From a virus, in the IMG/VR virus record IMGVR_UViG_2811994897_000004: a stretch of DNA of 36,047 nucleotides; one strand, 5' to 3'. How positions within the stretch are numbered: the first letter of the stretch is position 1; the number at the start of each line of letters is the position of its first letter. The translations under genes and the position numbers were made by a program. Under the pieces are notes generated by a model, which was not told where the DNA came from, ran no database searches, and saw only the letters and a program-made list of their open reading frames with translations. Positions 4,014-36,047 of the stretch are shown one piece after another.

Positions 4014-4073
4014 ATCTTACCAACTTGGACATTTTTTGTCCAGAATATAAAACGTTCTTAAGACTTTCTTAAA
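4014..4073 (-). promoter_or_regulatory. Early promoter with TTAAG direct repeat and a palindromic operator
   Basis: Minus strand: TTTAAGAAAGTCTTAAG (4057-4073), -35 TGGACA (4037-4042), 17-nt spacer, -10 TAAGAT (4014-4019). The perfect palindrome TGGACA-AAAAA-TGTCCA (4026-4042) overlaps the -35. Confidence 0.55.
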
Positions 4074-4100
4074 CTTTGTAACACAAACACAAAAAAAATA

Positions 4101-4330
4101 GAGTTCAAATTAGAAAAAATGTGTAGAAATTAGAAGTGAGTGAATTTAACAATTGCCATAATCACTCTCATAAAACTACTATAAACCTTATATATATAAT
4201 AAACACAACAATAATGTTGTTATAGTTATATTGTAGTAATTAGAGAAATTAGAAAAATTAGAGTTTTTGGTAGTTAGTTGTTTTTTTATATATAGTATAG
4301 GGTCGTCTAATTTCTAATTTCATGAATTCT
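4101..4330. repeat. Control region A: AATTAGA iteron cluster, an inverted paralogue of region B
   Basis: Forward AATTAGA at 4108, 4128, 4238, 4247 and 4256 (the last three at 9-bp spacing). Reverse TCTAATT at 4306 and 4313. It aligns with the reverse complement of 28608-28866 through shared blocks AATTAGAnAAATTAGAnAAATTAGAGTTTTT, GGTAGTTA, TCTAATTT, CATGAATT and ATAAACCnTATATATATAA. Confidence 0.85.
4238..4296 (+). promoter_or_regulatory. Plus-strand copy of the putative late promoter (iterons, -35 and -10), facing the end of the late operon
   Basis: Three 9-bp iterons (4238-4262), TTGGTA (4267-4272), 18-nt spacer, TATAGT (4291-4296). Homologous to the minus-strand element 28654-28719. Confidence 0.35.
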
Positions 4331-4341
4331 CTTATTGCAAT

Positions 4342-4371
4342 AAAATAAAAAGGCACCCAATCGGATGCCTT
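4342..4371 (-). terminator. Rho-independent terminator of the late operon (possibly bidirectional)
   Basis: Minus strand: AAGGCAtccgattgggTGCCTT followed by TTTTTATTTTATT, starting 8 nt after the endolysin stop. Confidence 0.8.
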
Positions 4372-4378
4372 AATTATT

Positions 4379-21286: not shown

Positions 21287-21403
21287 AATTGATTCTCCTT
21301 TGCACGTTGCTATGTACGCATTTAACCCACTTCACAACCCGCTATTTATTTTATGCACAACGTTTTGTACGTCAATGACCCGCAAAACCGTTCCACTTGC
21401 ATA

Positions 21404-21432
21404 ATTATAGCATTAATAACGAATATATACAA
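21404..21432 (-). promoter_or_regulatory. Promoter upstream of the scaffold gene
   Basis: -35 TTGTAT (21427-21432), 17-nt spacer, extended -10 TGCTATAAT (21404-21412). Palindrome TGCATA-A-TATGCA at 21440-21452. Confidence 0.5.
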
Positions 21433-21453
21433 TAAGTTGTGCATATTATGCAA

Positions 21454-21473
21454 TAAAAAAAGCCTTAAGGCTT
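21454..21473 (-). terminator. Rho-independent terminator after the MuF-like gene
   Basis: AAGCCttaaGGCTT followed by TTTTTTATT. The hairpin overlaps the stop codon. Confidence 0.6.
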
Positions 21474-23791: not shown

Positions 23792-23822
23792 AATATCCGC
23801 CTTAATGTTATTCAATACAATT

Positions 23823-23831
23823 ATTATATCA
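23823..23831 (-). promoter_or_regulatory. Extended -10 promoter TGATATAAT for the portal transcription unit
   Basis: Immediately follows the terminator T-run on the minus strand: ...GTGTCTTTTATTGTGATATAAT. Confidence 0.5.
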
Positions 23832-23832
23832 C

Positions 23833-23864
23833 AATAAAAGACACCCCGACGGATCGAAGTGTCT
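23833..23864 (-). terminator. Rho-independent terminator closing the terL / intergenic RNA unit
   Basis: AGACAC(ttcgatccgtcggg)GTGTCT followed by TTTTATT. Confidence 0.6.
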
Positions 23865-24148
23865 CAAGCACCGTCCTAAAACAAATGCCGCAATTATGTA
23901 CGCCCACTAATTTCGATGTTATCTTAATCAGCCATAGGGACTTCGTCTCTCAAACAGCTACCCAGAGATAGTGTGGTTTTTATAAACGTTATTTGCTGAT
24001 AGTATGTACGCCGCTATGGTGAGCTACACCAAGTTCGACTTTAGTACCGCAACCTTAATTGGCACCTTTATTTCTACCGGTAAGGAAACACCGTATGTCC
24101 CATGACAAACATACGGCGCGAAAGGAGGAAGTGGCACGATGTCCACTT
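23833..24148 (-). ncRNA. Candidate novel structured RNA (about 315 nt) between terL and portal
   Basis: No credible ORF. It has its own extended -10 and terminator. GC is about 40-50% by hand count, against about 25% in the other intergenic regions. Hairpins lie at 24128-24149 (7 bp) and 24089-24118 (10 bp). The 10-nt direct repeat GGCGTACATA occurs twice. Confidence 0.45.
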
Positions 24149-24175: not shown

Positions 24176-25453
24176 TTACAACCCAATATCCTTAACCGCT
24201 TGTACACGTTCTTTATATGACATGTATGTTCCTTTCTTATTAGTAAAGATAACCGATTCCAACGCATAGCCAAGTGCCTGAATGATGTGGTCTGATCCGT
24301 CTTCTGGTCTGTTGGTTAGGTTGCCAAACTTATCCTTAGCATACACTTTTGTTTCCATTTCTTCAGCTAGCCAATGCACGCGGGGATGAATGTGATACTT
24401 AAACGACTTCATGAATTCATAACGTTGTACAAAGCTGTCTTTACCTTTTCCTGCTGGTTGGACATTCTTCAATCCACGGCTTCTTAATTCCCCAATCGTT
24501 CTTGGTTCAGCACTATCAGCATAGATTGTTCCCGATATACCGCCATGTCGATAAATAGCACGTGCAATGTTCTCGTTAAGCATCCCCGTCTCATAGAACC
24601 CATCGTACACATAGATGTCGTGGTCACTAACAATTGCCTGCACAAATGCTGTCGGATCGTGAGTGAAACCGAAGTCAATACCCATGACGTGACGACCAAC
24701 GATGGTCTTGTAATCAAAGTCTTCTATGTTGAACAACCCTTCAAACACTTGACCTTCTGATATCCCCCAGTCGCCAAACACAGCTACTCTAGCACGTGCG
24801 GGATTGCGTTCAATCATATTCTCTAGTGATTCAATATACTGTTCATCAAGATGTGAGTTATCTTTGTAAGTTGTCGTGATTGCCTTTGAATGTGGTCGCT
24901 TTGTCATCTCATCAAAGAACTCACCCTTAAGCCAATGCTTCTCACTCCATGGGTTGAATGCCAGTATCGTTTGATAATAACCACCTTTAGGCAACACACC
25001 ACGGATTGATTCTTCGACTGTGTTGAAGTCGTCTATGCGCTTAATCTCGTACGCTTCTTCATAAAAAACACGGCACAAGTTCCCAACGTCAGCTTTGATG
25101 GAAGTAATCTTTAGCGGATCATCTAAGCCACGAAAATATATCTTTTGTCCGGTTGGTTTGTACTTTATTTCTAACGGACTGACAGTGAATTTAAACAACT
25201 GATCTAATCCTAATTGATGAACAGCCCATCGTATATTTGAGAATGTACTATCCTTATGCGTTGTCTGAAACTGTCGCACGACAAGCCAATTAACGTATGG
25301 TTGCTTCATTATCGTCATAACAATACCAAACGCAATTCCGGCAGACTTACCTGAACCACGACCACCTTTGTAAACTAGATAACGTTCATGGCTTGTAAAC
25401 AAATCTTTATATGCGCTGCTCACCAGCTCTTTTTCATTTATCGTAATATTCAT
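24176..25453 (-). CDS. terL: Terminase large subunit (PBSX/Terminase_3-like)
   Basis: Walker A YKGGRGSGKSAG with a nuclease-domain C-terminus. The preferred start is ATG 25453 (MNITINEKELV...). The track start is a TTG at 25519 that would read through a terminator hairpin. Confidence 0.9.
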   Translation of the reverse strand: MNITINEKELVSSAYKDLFTSHERYLVYKGGRGSGKSAGIAFGIVMTIMKQPYVNWLVVRQFQTTHKDSTFSNIRWAVHQLGLDQLFKFTVSPLEIKYKPTGQKIYFRGLDDPLKITSIKADVGNLCRVFYEEAYEIKRIDDFNTVEESIRGVLPKGGYYQTILAFNPWSEKHWLKGEFFDEMTKRPHSKAITTTYKDNSHLDEQYIESLENMIERNPARARVAVFGDWGISEGQVFEGLFNIEDFDYKTIVGRHVMGIDFGFTHDPTAFVQAIVSDHDIYVYDGFYETGMLNENIARAIYRHGGISGTIYADSAEPRTIGELRSRGLKNVQPAGKGKDSFVQRYEFMKSFKYHIHPRVHWLAEEMETKVYAKDKFGNLTNRPEDGSDHIIQALGYALESVIFTNKKGTYMSYKERVQAVKDIGL

Positions 25454-25459
25454 AATTAA

Positions 25460-25468
25460 ATTATAGCA
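25460..25468 (-). promoter_or_regulatory. Extended -10 TGCTATAAT placed 6 nt before the terL ATG (would give a leaderless mRNA)
   Basis: Minus strand: GGCTTTTTATTATGCTATAATTTAATTATG. There is no SD in front of the ATG. Confidence 0.4.
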
Positions 25469-25497
25469 TAATAAAAAGCCATCCGGCAGGGGATGAC
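25468..25497 (-). terminator. Rho-independent terminator immediately upstream of terL
   Basis: GTCATCC(cctgcc)GGATGGC (7 bp including one G-U) followed by TTTTTATTAT. Confidence 0.6.
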
Positions 25498-25624
25498 CTT
25501 CTATTACATAGTTACTCAAAACATGCCTTATTTAATCGGATAGGCTTTGACATAAGCAAGCGTCAACCAATCAGAGTGCCATACACCTTTTCTACTTTGT
25601 GCATCAAGCCCACCGCTTGCCTAT
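25468..25624 (-). ncRNA. Structured about 155-nt leader or short RNA, from the TTAAG-type promoter to the terminator before terL
   Basis: A 10-bp long-range helix, TAGGCAAGCG (25614-25623) with CGCTTGCTTA (25553-25562). Competing ATAGGC/GCCTAT/ATAAGGC pairings. No ORF. Confidence 0.4.
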
Positions 25625-25630
25625 GAATCT

Positions 25631-25680
25631 ATAATATCATTTATGATTGGGGATGTATAGTAGCTTAACTATTTCTTAAC
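25631..25680 (-). promoter_or_regulatory. TTAAG-type promoter cassette
   Basis: GTTAAGAAATAGTTAAG (25664-25680), then 27 nt, then extended -10 TGATATTAT (25631-25639). Confidence 0.5.
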
Positions 25681-26462: not shown

Positions 26463-26497
26463 CCCTTATCACACCTCGTTTTAACTGTTATTATCCC

Positions 26498-26506
26498 ATT
26501 ATAGCA
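26498..26506 (-). promoter_or_regulatory. Extended -10 promoter TGCTATAAT for terS
   Basis: Follows the terminator T-run: ...GTGCTTTTTTATTTGTGCTATAATGGG. Confidence 0.5.
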
Positions 26507-26510
26507 CAAA

Positions 26511-26535
26511 TAAAAAAGCACGACTAGTGTCATGC
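26511..26535 (-). terminator. Rho-independent terminator after the 105-aa exported-protein gene
   Basis: GCATGAC(acta)GTCGTGC followed by TTTTTTATTT. Confidence 0.65.
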
Positions 26536-26541
26536 CTGTTT

Positions 26542-26859: not shown

Positions 26860-26888
26860 GGCTGTTTTCCTCTTTTCTTAATGTCTTA

Positions 26889-26937
26889 ATTATAACAAAT
26901 AAAAAAGCGCTAATGTGCGCCTTAATACTTTCTTAAC
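26889..26937 (-). promoter_or_regulatory. TTAAG-type promoter cassette
   Basis: GTTAAGAAAGTATTAAG (26921-26937), then 26 nt, then extended -10 TGTTATAAT (26889-26897). Two further TTAAG pentamers lie in the 5' UTR (26877-26889). Confidence 0.5.
26901..26920 (-). terminator. Weak hairpin plus T6 between the operator and the -10
   Basis: GCGC(acatta)GCGC followed by TTTTTTATTT. The stem is only 4-5 bp. Confidence 0.3.
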
Positions 26938-26939
26938 AT

Positions 26940-27119
26940 TTAACTAAACCATATACCATAAACAATCATGCCCACACCATACCATAACATAATCAGCGTC
27001 ATAATAACTGTTATAAATGCGTCTCTTGTTTTATCTGTACGCACATAATTAAACGATCCGTAAACCAGCGTGAATCCAGACAATATGATAAAGAAAACGC
27101 CATAAAATATTTGATTCAT
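26940..27119 (-). CDS. Small 2-TM membrane protein
   Basis: Preferred start is ATG 27119 (MNQIFYGVFFIILSGFTLVYG...MTLIMLWYGVGMIVYGIWFS) behind GAGGTG. Confidence 0.55.
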   Translation of the reverse strand: MNQIFYGVFFIILSGFTLVYGSFNYVRTDKTRDAFITVIMTLIMLWYGVGMIVYGIWFS

Positions 27120-28336: not shown

Positions 28337-28387
28337 CTTTATAGTCTCTATTTTGCTTTCTGAGCCATTTTAAGACTCGTTAAGGTA

Positions 28388-28396
28388 TTTATACCA
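28388..28396 (-). promoter_or_regulatory. Extended -10-like element TGGTATAAA upstream of the metallophosphoesterase gene
   Basis: Minus strand: ATGTAAAATGGTATAAATACC. Confidence 0.3.
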
Positions 28397-28436
28397 TTTT
28401 ACATTTAAAACTCCTTAAAACGTAAATTAAGTGCGT

Positions 28437-28595: not shown

Positions 28596-29041
28596 TTTTA
28601 TTCTCCTTAAATTCATGAAATTCGTAAAATGCGTAAAATTAGAAATTCGCGACTTAATACAATAATAAATAAATAACTACCAAGTACGAAAAACTCTAAT
28701 TTCTCTAATTTTTCTAATTGCCCCCAGAAACTAGGCTATAAACTACTTTTATTAAACGCTATATATAATCTAACATAACTATGATTGTTGTTATATATAT
28801 AGGGTTTATGGTTATTAGTGTTAGTGATTGTTTTACCAGAAACGTTGATTTTTGGGGGCAATTAGATATTTTCTAATTCTAGCTAAATATTTCTAATTGC
28901 AACTCGTTATATATTTCATTTGTGTTACATTGATTAAATTAACGTGAGTTTATTTGTTTTTGGCGTTAGTTATTTAATCGATATATCATATAAAATATTA
29001 AATTGTTTATTTAATTGTGTATCCAATTATATTTTCTAATT
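28596..29041. repeat. Control region B: AATTAGA iterons, nested inverted repeats and an AT-rich tract (putative late promoter and/or origin)
   Basis: TCTAATT at 28695, 28704 and 28713 (9-bp spacing), and at 28872, 28892 and 29035. AATTAGA at 28637 and 28860. A perfect 14-bp inverted repeat, TCTAATTGCCCCCA (28713-28726) with TGGGGGCAATTAGA (28853-28866). Inner inverted repeat CTATATATAA/TTATATATAG. No ORF. Confidence 0.85.
28654..28719 (-). promoter_or_regulatory. Putative late promoter with three upstream 9-bp iterons
   Basis: Minus strand: AATTAGAAAAATTAGAGAAATTAGAG-TTTTTCGTAC-TTGGTA (28678-28683), 18 nt, TATTAA (28654-28659), then the 5' UTR and AAGGAG of the 52-aa gene. Confidence 0.4.
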
Positions 29042-33473: not shown

Positions 33474-33517
33474 TTGTATTTCCTTCTTTCTTTTATTAGC
33501 CGTTCGGCTATGGTCTT

Positions 33518-33567
33518 ATGATAACAACTAGGTAAAACAATAACAAGTGTCTTAACATTTTCTTAAC
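33518..33567 (-). promoter_or_regulatory. TTAAG-type promoter cassette
   Basis: GTTAAGAAAATGTTAAG (33551-33567), 4 nt, -35 TTGTTA, 17 nt, extended -10 TGTTATCAT (33518-33526). Confidence 0.55.
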
Positions 33568-35683: not shown

Positions 35684-35733
35684 ATCATAATGCAAAGTAA
35701 AACAATAAACAATGTGCTTAATACTTTCTTAAC
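35684..35733 (-). promoter_or_regulatory. TTAAG-type promoter cassette
   Basis: GTTAAGAAAGTATTAAG (35717-35733), 4 nt, -35 TTGTTT, 17 nt, -10 TATGAT (35684-35689). Confidence 0.55.
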
Positions 35734-35735
35734 AT

Positions 35736-36047
35736 TTAAGAATTTAACTTTGCATTAAAGTTTATTTTGTGATTCAAAGCATCAATAATTTTATCATCAA
35801 TCGTACCGTTGACAATTAAGTAATCACGTGTCACTTTTTTCGTTTGATTGATACGATAGTTGCGATATTTTGATTGATCGAAGTCAGTGTATGAATAAGG
35901 CAAACTATACCAAATTGCATGTTGATATTCATTCAGTGTCAATCCAGCGCCACCTGCTTGTATTTGCACTAATAGCGCCCTTTTTTTATGATTAACATGT
36001 TTGCTACCATTAATCTCTCCAGCGTCTTTAAACACTGTTTTAAGCGC
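35736..36047 (-). CDS. SNF2/DEAH-type helicase, C-terminal part (continuous with 1-978 on the circle; whole gene 382 aa)
   Basis: ...ALLVQIQAGGAGLTLNEYQHAIWYSLPYSYTDFDQSKYRNYRINQTKKV... is a helicase-C motif V/VI region. The frame stays open to the window end and in phase with 1-978. Confidence 0.85.
   Translation of the reverse strand, partial: ALKTVFKDAGEINGSKHVNHKKRALLVQIQAGGAGLTLNEYQHAIWYSLPYSYTDFDQSKYRNYRINQTKKVTRDYLIVNGTIDDKIIDALNHKINFNAKLNS
35907..36047. repeat. Terminal overlap, identical to 1-141
   Basis: Direct comparison of both ends. Confidence 0.95.

Follow-up and report, generated by a model that had tools for sequence, protein, structure and literature searches.

The viral DNA of IMG/VR record IMGVR_UViG_2811994897_000004, analyzed here over its full 36,047 nucleotides (nt) (the window), carries a direct repeat, TTAAG-N6-TTAAG, upstream of five of its predicted promoters. 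Sequence analysis indicates, with a probability of about 0.8 in our estimate, that this repeat is a selected upstream promoter element bound by a regulator that occupies its two half-sites in tandem. The best candidate for the reader is a CiaR-like response regulator of the host, an assignment that we hold tentatively and place just short of even odds. We infer activation rather than repression from the layout of the promoters alone.

The repeat is present at 35717, 33551, 26921, 25664, and 4057, as the first-pass annotation of this DNA had reported, always on the minus strand, which is the strand of all genes in the window. The claims that the copies are invariably intergenic and that their two pentamers start 11 nt apart also hold, as every copy falls within the ~2.5 kb (7%) of the genome that is non-coding and has the exact TTAAG-N6-TTAAG core. 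Comparison with shuffled sequence gave four exact matches to the 17-mer pattern against 0.00 expected, and allowing up to two mismatches returned exactly the five listed sites against 0.62 expected, with no shuffle reaching five. When scored with a weight matrix, the five sites (22.6 to 25.9 bits) are the only ones at or above 11 bits, none lying in coding DNA. A scan of spacers from N0 to N20 yields five matches at N6 and 0 to 1 at any other length, TTAAG is the top-ranked 5-mer for 11-nt-phased direct repeats in the genome, and the window scan found no TTAAG-N6-TTAAG on the opposite strand. Two extra pentamer pairs that had been proposed, at 26877-26889 and 28370-28384, do exist, with start-to-start distances of 8 and 10 nt rather than 11. 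The density of five copies per 35.9 kb is ~70-fold that of Fructobacillus chromosomes, which have 2 to 4 copies per 1.3 to 1.5 Mb. The copies and the promoter features around them are as follows.

35717 to 35733, minus strand: motif copy GTTAAGAAAGTATTAAG, 2 nt past the helicase stop codon and upstream of the exonuclease/Sak4 unit.
35684 to 35689, minus strand: -10 hexamer TATGAT without TG, 27 nt after the motif, with the weak -35 TTGTTT.
33551 to 33567, minus strand: motif copy GTTAAGAAAATGTTAAG, after the stop of a 77-aa open reading frame (ORF) and upstream of the SSB-to-primase unit.
33518 to 33526, minus strand: extended -10 TGTTATCAT, its hexamer 27 nt after motif 33551.
26921 to 26937, minus strand: motif copy GTTAAGAAAGTATTAAG, after the stop of a small ORF at 26940 and upstream of a 105-aa membrane-protein gene.
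26904 to 26923, minus strand: small terminator hairpin separating the motif from the -10, with the last AAG of the motif in its stem.
26889 to 26897, minus strand: extended -10 TGTTATAAT, its hexamer 26 nt after motif 26921.
25664 to 25680, minus strand: motif copy GTTAAGAAATAGTTAAG, ahead of the structured terL leader.
25631 to 25639, minus strand: extended -10 TGATATTAT, its hexamer 27 nt after motif 25664, with the -35-like hexamer TATACA.
4057 to 4073, minus strand: motif copy TTTAAGAAAGTCTTAAG of the presumed early promoter, after the lysis terminator and origin-like repeats.
4026 to 4042, minus strand: palindrome TGGACAAAAAATGTCCA, read from the sequence, between the motif and the distal early -10.
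4014 to 4022, minus strand: extended -10 TGGTAAGAT (TGgTAAGAT), 37 nt after motif 4057.

The end of the motif is separated from the -10 hexamer by 27, 27, 26, and 27 nt for the copies at 35717, 33551, 26921, and 25664, and the early promoter copy at 4057 stands one helical turn further out, 37 nt from its -10, both as first described. Four nucleotides past the motif, the -35 position holds only TTGTTT, TTGTTA, CACATT, or TATACA, the first two being the weak -35s noted earlier. The -10 hexamers in these four promoters are TATGAT, TATCAT, TATAAT, and TATTAT, the last three with TGn and hence extended (TGnTAnnAT). We propose that the repeat spans roughly -56 to -40 in five promoters of the sigma-A type whose -35 is weak or absent and which would rely on the extended -10. 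Head-to-tail half-sites 11 bp apart would point to a winged-helix regulator of the OmpR/PhoB type that binds in tandem. Bound beside the -35 position, it would recruit or stabilize the host RNA polymerase, possibly by touching the alpha C-terminal domain or sigma region 4, and would do so from one helical turn further upstream at the early promoter. There, an alternative reading places a -10, TATATT, 7 nt after the motif and uses the first TTAAGA as the -35 (TTAAGA-N17-TATATT); the first pentamer as a -35 was rejected as a general reading, as this arrangement fits the early promoter only. The palindrome TGGACAAAAAATGTCCA could be a second operator or a 5' hairpin.

Not every promoter in the window is marked. 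Downstream of motif 4057 lie small early ORFs, a methyltransferase fragment, proteins with weak helix-turn-helix (HTH) matches, a nucleotide kinase, and the helicase; 35717 is followed by the exonuclease and then Sak4; 33551 by SSB, primase, HNH, and a 402-aa Mre11-like phosphoesterase; 26921 by the 105-aa membrane protein and then terS; and 25664 by the leader, terL, portal, head, tail, holin, and endolysin genes. Other promoters, at 26463-26541, 25450-25520, 23816-23875, and 21400-21471, lack the motif, carry the extended -10 TGCTATAAT or TGATATAAT, and drive terS, terL, the portal gene, and the scaffold/capsid genes. These consist of an intrinsic terminator followed by a perfect TGnTATAAT within its T-run (hexamers at 26503, 25465, 23828, and 21409). 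Since such promoters exist, the motif marks a subset (the early, replication, and pre-packaging units) and not all promoters.

Two further observations concern promoters in this region. A leader of ~165 nt with an 18-pair hairpin (25467-25630) separates the 25664 promoter from terL, and a second promoter, TGCTATAAT with its hexamer at 25465, sits inside the 25664-terL leader, which makes the annotated TTG start of terL at 25519 doubtful. Ahead of the 402-aa gene, an extended -10, TGGTATAAA, is present (28390-28436), with only a degenerate, out-of-phase TTAAT/TTAAG pair upstream of it (starts 12 nt apart, 20 nt from the -10).

To these five copies, others of the same type can be added from outside the window. 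Two IMG/VR fragments from one metagenome, L006 and L007 (TerL 77% and 92% identical, respectively), have two copies each, and all four are followed by TGnTATAAT or TGATATTAT 26 to 27 nt downstream. One of these copies comes after terL, a position that is motif-free in the window, suggesting that the cassette moves as a module. An IMG/VR scan for the motif plus an extended -10 returned 106 matches, mostly single chance ones, and only L006 and L007 had two copies; one other contig has the motif solely inside its inverted terminal repeats.

A further copy belongs to a satellite. Its D5-primase/integrase island is found three times in the Lactobacillaceae genome G130 (L162; L163, G130:C56:1-4000; and L164), and the same island is in the Leuconostoc phage LLC-1 record, labeled "unverified" (L208; KJ608189.1, 38389-42555), with no second motif copy in that record. 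In the satellite, TTAAGAAAG-NN-TTAAG stands after the last small ORF, 26 nt before TGaAATAAT and ahead of the integrase gene, and the three satellite copies vary in N3 and flank with the pentamers unchanged. We also note that the predicted transcription start of this promoter falls in the 5' arm of the upstream terminator stem.

The consensus of the repeat is (G/T)TTAAG-AAA-N2-NTTAAG. Among ten aligned phage-type copies (five from the window, four from L006 and L007, and one from the satellite), only TTAAGAAA-N3-TTAAG is invariant, including the G of both pentamers; the spacer is free in sequence and fixed in length. Nine of the ten have a -10 hexamer 26 or 27 nt downstream, eight of those nine with TGn. 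The Weissella phages WC29P3 and WCP_01 contain TTAAGAAAATGTTAAG, a 16-mer identical to copy 33551, directly after a stop codon; there the motif is followed by a terminator hairpin and then by a consensus TTGACA-17-TATAGT promoter, the end of the motif lying 47 to 48 nt from the -10. Other Weissella phage cassettes keep only the second TTAAG, paired into the terminator stem. The distances to the -10 of 26 to 27, 37 (early), and 47 to 48 nt (Weissella) differ by about one helical turn each.

Several of these features could be taken to mean that the repeat has no transcriptional role and is instead either the 5' edge of a mobile promoter/terminator cassette, that is, a recombination joint after stop codons, or a terminator or RNA-processing signal at the 3' end of the upstream transcript. 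Five of the ten copies begin exactly 2 nt past a TAA stop and, as had been claimed, TAAAT-GTTAAG provides the stop codon of the upstream ORF at 35736, 33570, and 26940. The cassettes at 35717, 33551, and 26921, the first two of which had been described as similar, are alike over their whole length, with 75% mean column identity from stop codon to start codon, and are paralogues. At the RNA level, copy 26921, L006 and L007, and the Weissella phages have a terminator stem that includes the final AAG of the motif; the stem of the 26904-26923 hairpin is preserved in L006 and L007 by compensatory changes (gcgc/gcgc versus aacg/cgtt). Yet no hairpin follows the motif in copies 35717, 33551, and 25664, and unrelated spacers keep the -10 at 26 to 27 nt, which together make a purely structural or RNA role unlikely. 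The pentamers and AAA are fixed across paralogues and orthologues, the three satellite copies included, while N3 and the flanks change, and the strict 11-nt phasing argues for recognition at the DNA level. We regard this as the least probable of the readings considered here. Relative to its two paralogues, the 33551 cassette has a 14-nt insertion at 33485-33510, which forms a small hairpin, AGCCGAACGGCT, in its 5' untranslated region.

The same invariance bears on whether the RNA polymerase itself reads the repeat. UP elements are A/T-rich tracts at -40 to -60, lack base-specific G or C, and are widespread at strong host promoters. The pentamers, centered near -42 and -53, coincide with the proximal and distal UP subsites, where two alpha C-terminal domains could bind, and promoters without a -35 would gain from upstream contacts. 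However, both Gs are invariant in the ten copies, whereas UP elements are A/T tracts without an invariant G, and the strongest-looking phage promoters, those with a perfect TGnTATAAT at 26503, 25465, 23828, and 21409, lack the motif. A general polymerase contact would be expected to be common at strong host promoters, but TTAAGAAA-N3-TTAAG occurs in 118 of 301 Lactobacillaceae genomes with 0 to 6 copies each, and the core in ~14 copies, near the reversed control. As both Gs are invariant and the word is not widely used in host genomes, a generic UP-like element is very improbable, and we return to a dedicated regulator as the reader of the repeat.

Bases 42-119 of the window equal 35948-36025 (a stretch of ~78 nt compared at an offset of 35,906), and a phrog_62 helicase gene is divided between both window ends. 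From the offset, the overlap of the ends would be bases 1-141 with 35907-36047. As sequence near the ends recurs at this offset, the window appears to be a complete circular assembly of ~35,906 bp with the helicase gene across the junction. No integrase or repressor was seen in the window, and Rfam and tRNA scans of it returned no RNA genes. Structural proteins are 45 to 60% identical to those of Weissella phages WC29P3, WCP_01, and WCP30, replication proteins are 31 to 54% identical to those of L. plantarum phages phiJL-1 and ATCC8014, and TerL is 62% identical to that of Fructobacillus prophages. These identities imply that the host probably belongs to the Leuconostoc/Weissella/Fructobacillus part of the Lactobacillaceae; the endolysin comparison was uninformative in this respect. 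Among GenBank phages, a megablast search with the motif region gave no match, and a sensitive blastn search with two cassettes gave noise only. Two gene-free stretches, 28617-29041 and 4074-4378, are rich in AATTAGAAA/TTTCTAATT repeats and ATATATA runs and look like origins; the second adjoins the early TTAAG promoter on its upstream side.

In streptococci, the CiaR box reads NTTAAG-N5-TTTAAG, stands 10 nt upstream of the -10, and contains a G that is essential (PMC3091779); the SaeR box, GTTAA-N6-GTTAA, is related to it (PMC5083920). All five window copies and the five further phage-type copies share the core of this box, TTAAG-N6-TTAAG. As the core equals that of a host CiaR-type box, a host factor is at least as likely a reader as a phage one, and the phage may borrow a host switch protein. 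L. carnosum has been reported to carry CiaH/CiaR (PMC7829361). In all five Lactobacillaceae genomes read for this purpose (G130, G007, G181, G243, and G258), one response regulator is 52 to 55% identical to a hand-entered CiaR probe sequence, other regulators being at most 40% identical to that probe. A histidine kinase gene follows the CiaR-like gene where the downstream frame was read (G243 and G258).

Three of the five genomes share the recognition helix VVEVYMSNLRKKI, where CiaR has VVEVYVSKVRKKL, and the same three have TTTAAG-TCTAG-TTTAAG followed after 10 nt by TAATCT ahead of the CiaR-like operon, by its sequence a textbook CiaR-type autoregulated promoter. In the two genomes with helix VVNIYLNNLRRKL, the corresponding position holds TTTAAC-N5-TTTAAC and TTTAAT-N5-CTTAAT, and other boxes in G130 mix G and C. 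The last letter of the box therefore varies with the recognition helix (TTTAAG with VVEVYMSNLRKKI, TTTAAC or TTTAAT with VVNIYLNNLRRKL; loci L166-L170), a covariation that represents a possible natural specificity switch. Further canonical host boxes are found ahead of a surface-protein gene and an ABC-transporter ATPase gene, and the host promoters examined hold the box 9 to 11 nt before the -10. A distal site belonging to the phage subtype, TTAAGAAAT(A/T)TTTAAG, is also conserved in the three genomes, ahead of another surface-protein gene, 36 nt before TAGAAT and 47 nt before TGtTAAATT, with a diverged spacer. None of 30 host motif sites has a response-regulator gene adjacent. Several small Lactobacillaceae genomes (loci L199, L197, L185, L132, and L134) have a conserved TTAAGAAAAA(A/G)TTAAG downstream of a TATAAT promoter and ahead of the ribosome-binding site of a membrane-protein gene, a position at which the same regulator may repress or act as a roadblock.

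What would favor a host reader is that the phage element has the same core, phase, and orientation as the host box, that no phage regulator is common to the three unrelated kinds of element carrying it, that the motif is already at the first promoter, and that the host has a distal site of the phage subtype. There is also a precedent: PhoP, of the OmpR family, acts from 12, 21 to 23, and 30 to 58 nt upstream of the -10, and horizontally acquired genes have promoter architectures distinct from the ancestral ones (PMC3335776). The phage, the satellite island, and the Weissella phages would then plug their promoters into one host two-component system. A bolder version, to which we give about one chance in three or slightly better, is that three unrelated kinds of element (a virulent Leuconostoc/Weissella-group phage, an unrelated integrase-primase satellite, and Weissella phages) are wired to a host CiaRH-like envelope-stress system via a distal box 26 to 27, 37, or 47 nt from the -10, which would make the sensor pathway the main early/middle transcription factor of the phage and the excision alarm of the satellite.

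In the main competing explanation, the phage itself would encode an early regulator, expressed from the 4057 promoter, that has the repeat as its operator and would switch on, or later shut off, the middle promoters at 35717, 33551, 26921, and 25664; the satellite integrase promoter would then sense the same helper-phage protein. The marked promoters (early, replication, and pre-packaging) suit such an early-to-middle cascade, with later structural units using motif-less promoters, and the invariant AAA and the non-canonical spacing separate the phage sites from host CiaR-type promoters. Satellites that copy the activator sites of a helper phage are a known theme (P4 and P2). Ltr-family activators bind direct repeats right past a stop codon (PMC3753634).

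The phage proteins offer less. The first-pass annotation had proposed the operator of a dedicated regulator defining a set of promoters, to be read by small HTH proteins or by the HTH domain of the 402-aa protein; the operator and promoter set are supported, but the proposed readers are not. The small proteins have only weak, unspecific HTH matches, and the best phage candidate among them is a 114-aa early protein (1754-2098) with weak HTH signals. The 402-aa HTH-phosphoesterase, the only non-structural candidate in common, was rejected as a common reader: its N-terminal HTH-like domains are unrelated between lineages, differing even in the Weissella phages with the identical 16-mer, and its phiJL-1 homologue occurs without the motif. 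Searches of small ORFs and of the genes before terS against PHROGs and Pfam gave no family-level match to Alt, RinA, LtrC, ArpU, winged-helix, or Trans_reg_C, and no small protein or regulator gene is common to this phage, the Weissella phages, and the Leuconostoc-type satellite. The LLC-1 record, which contains the satellite, has no other motif copy, and the motif also marks the first promoter, whose firing has to precede the synthesis of any phage protein. A phage-encoded reader thus appears unlikely to us, although it is the strongest of the alternatives.

The assignment to a CiaR-like host regulator nevertheless has to be set against a number of observations, all of which weigh against it. 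The canonical CiaR-type box lies 10 (9 to 11) nt before the -10, whereas the phage box is 16 to 17 bp further upstream, a shift of ~1.6 turns that puts it on another face of the helix. Phage-type copies always have AAA after the first pentamer, which canonical (9- to 11-nt) host boxes lack, and the second phage hexamer begins with A, G, or C and never with T, at a position that is variable in the published CiaR logo (PMC3091779). The regulator and its box were read in related Lactobacillaceae genomes, the phage's own host being placed at group level; the identification relied on the hand-entered probe mentioned above; and NCBIfam has no CiaR model, no model scoring above cut-off for the CiaR-like regulators. 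Across the 301 genomes, TTAAGAAA-N3-TTAAG has no visible excess over the reversed control, as judged by eye without summing. The Weissella promoters own a perfect -35 and -10 and need no activator; as the second TTAAG there belongs to the terminator stem, that copy may be retained for another reason. Finally, no TTAAG repeat was found in S. thermophilus phage 2972, the only streptococcal phage examined, and no such repeat in the fragments examined of Fructobacillus prophage relatives, which also show no motif tracking the host box variant (TTAAT).

Canonical CiaR spacing in the phage was rejected, with the -10 at 26 to 27 nt in nine copies and at 37 nt in the early copy, and no conserved -10 was found 9 to 11 nt past the motif in phage-type copies. 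As the phage copies lack the defining 10-nt spacing, the phage element is, on sequence grounds, not a member of the canonical CiaR promoter class. LytTR/AgrA-type sites, whose repeats are 21 bp apart, share the GTTAAG core and were rejected on spacing.

If the repeat is an upstream element for a dedicated regulator, most early and middle transcription of a lytic phage of dairy or vegetable fermentations would depend on one DNA word and one regulator. Should the CiaR-like protein of the host be the reader, the phage would be one of the rare documented lytic phages with a response regulator from a host two-component system as activator (in the known precedent, phi29 with Spo0A, the effect is repressive), and a satellite island would gain a mechanism for sensing infection or envelope stress. 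The CiaR regulon concept would then also reach past the streptococci into the Leuconostoc-Weissella group, with a second, distal promoter architecture for a CiaR-like regulator. Should the reader be a phage protein, the motif would define a new activator family to look for.

Among known systems, Spo0A offers a parallel in host-phage relationship; it is not an OmpR-type regulator, and its boxes are single 7-mers with a repressive effect. Phages phi29 and Nf have binding sites for this host regulator (PMC2731898) and thus resemble the present phage as lytic phages with sites for a host response regulator, putative here, through which host physiology would steer transcription, whereas the layout here suggests activation. 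The TP901-1 Alt/Ltr family (RinA, LtrC, and ArpU; PMC3753634) likewise combines direct repeats with a weak promoter, often right after a stop codon, in Gram-positive phages, but those systems use a single late promoter in front of terS, immediately preceded by the activator gene. Here, in contrast, five promoters are marked, mostly early and middle ones, the promoters of terS, terL, portal, and scaffold genes lack the motif while the early and replication units have it, and no homologous activator gene was found among the small ORFs scanned and the genes before terS; the earlier analogy with Alt thus fits in layout and fails in protein family. The S. aureus SaeR site, GTTAA-N6-GTTAA (PMC5083920), is matched perfectly by copies 33551 and 25664 and shares the 11-bp phase and OmpR-family logic. 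In SaeR sites, however, the G before TTAA is dispensable and no G is needed after it, whereas the phage copies keep the trailing G throughout and vary in the leading base, and the host clade is not Staphylococcus.

The Salmonella PhoP promoters III to V (PMC3335776) are similar in placing an OmpR-family direct-repeat box at several discrete distances from the -10; the regulator, the box sequence, and the phylum differ, and the boxes of architecture V are reversed, while the phage boxes are direct. Close as well are the CiaR promoters of Streptococcus (PMC3091779), with which the phage element shares head-to-tail TTAAG units starting 11 bp apart, an invariant G, the same orientation to transcription, and the lack of a normal -35; related host genomes have a CiaR-like regulator and a canonical autoregulated box. 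The phage element departs from them in lying 26 to 27 (37, 47) nt from the -10, in its invariant AAA, in a second hexamer that never starts with T, and in residing in a phage and a satellite rather than in a chromosomal stress regulon. The comparison points to a variant of the OmpR-family-type direct-repeat site with a new, distal layout.

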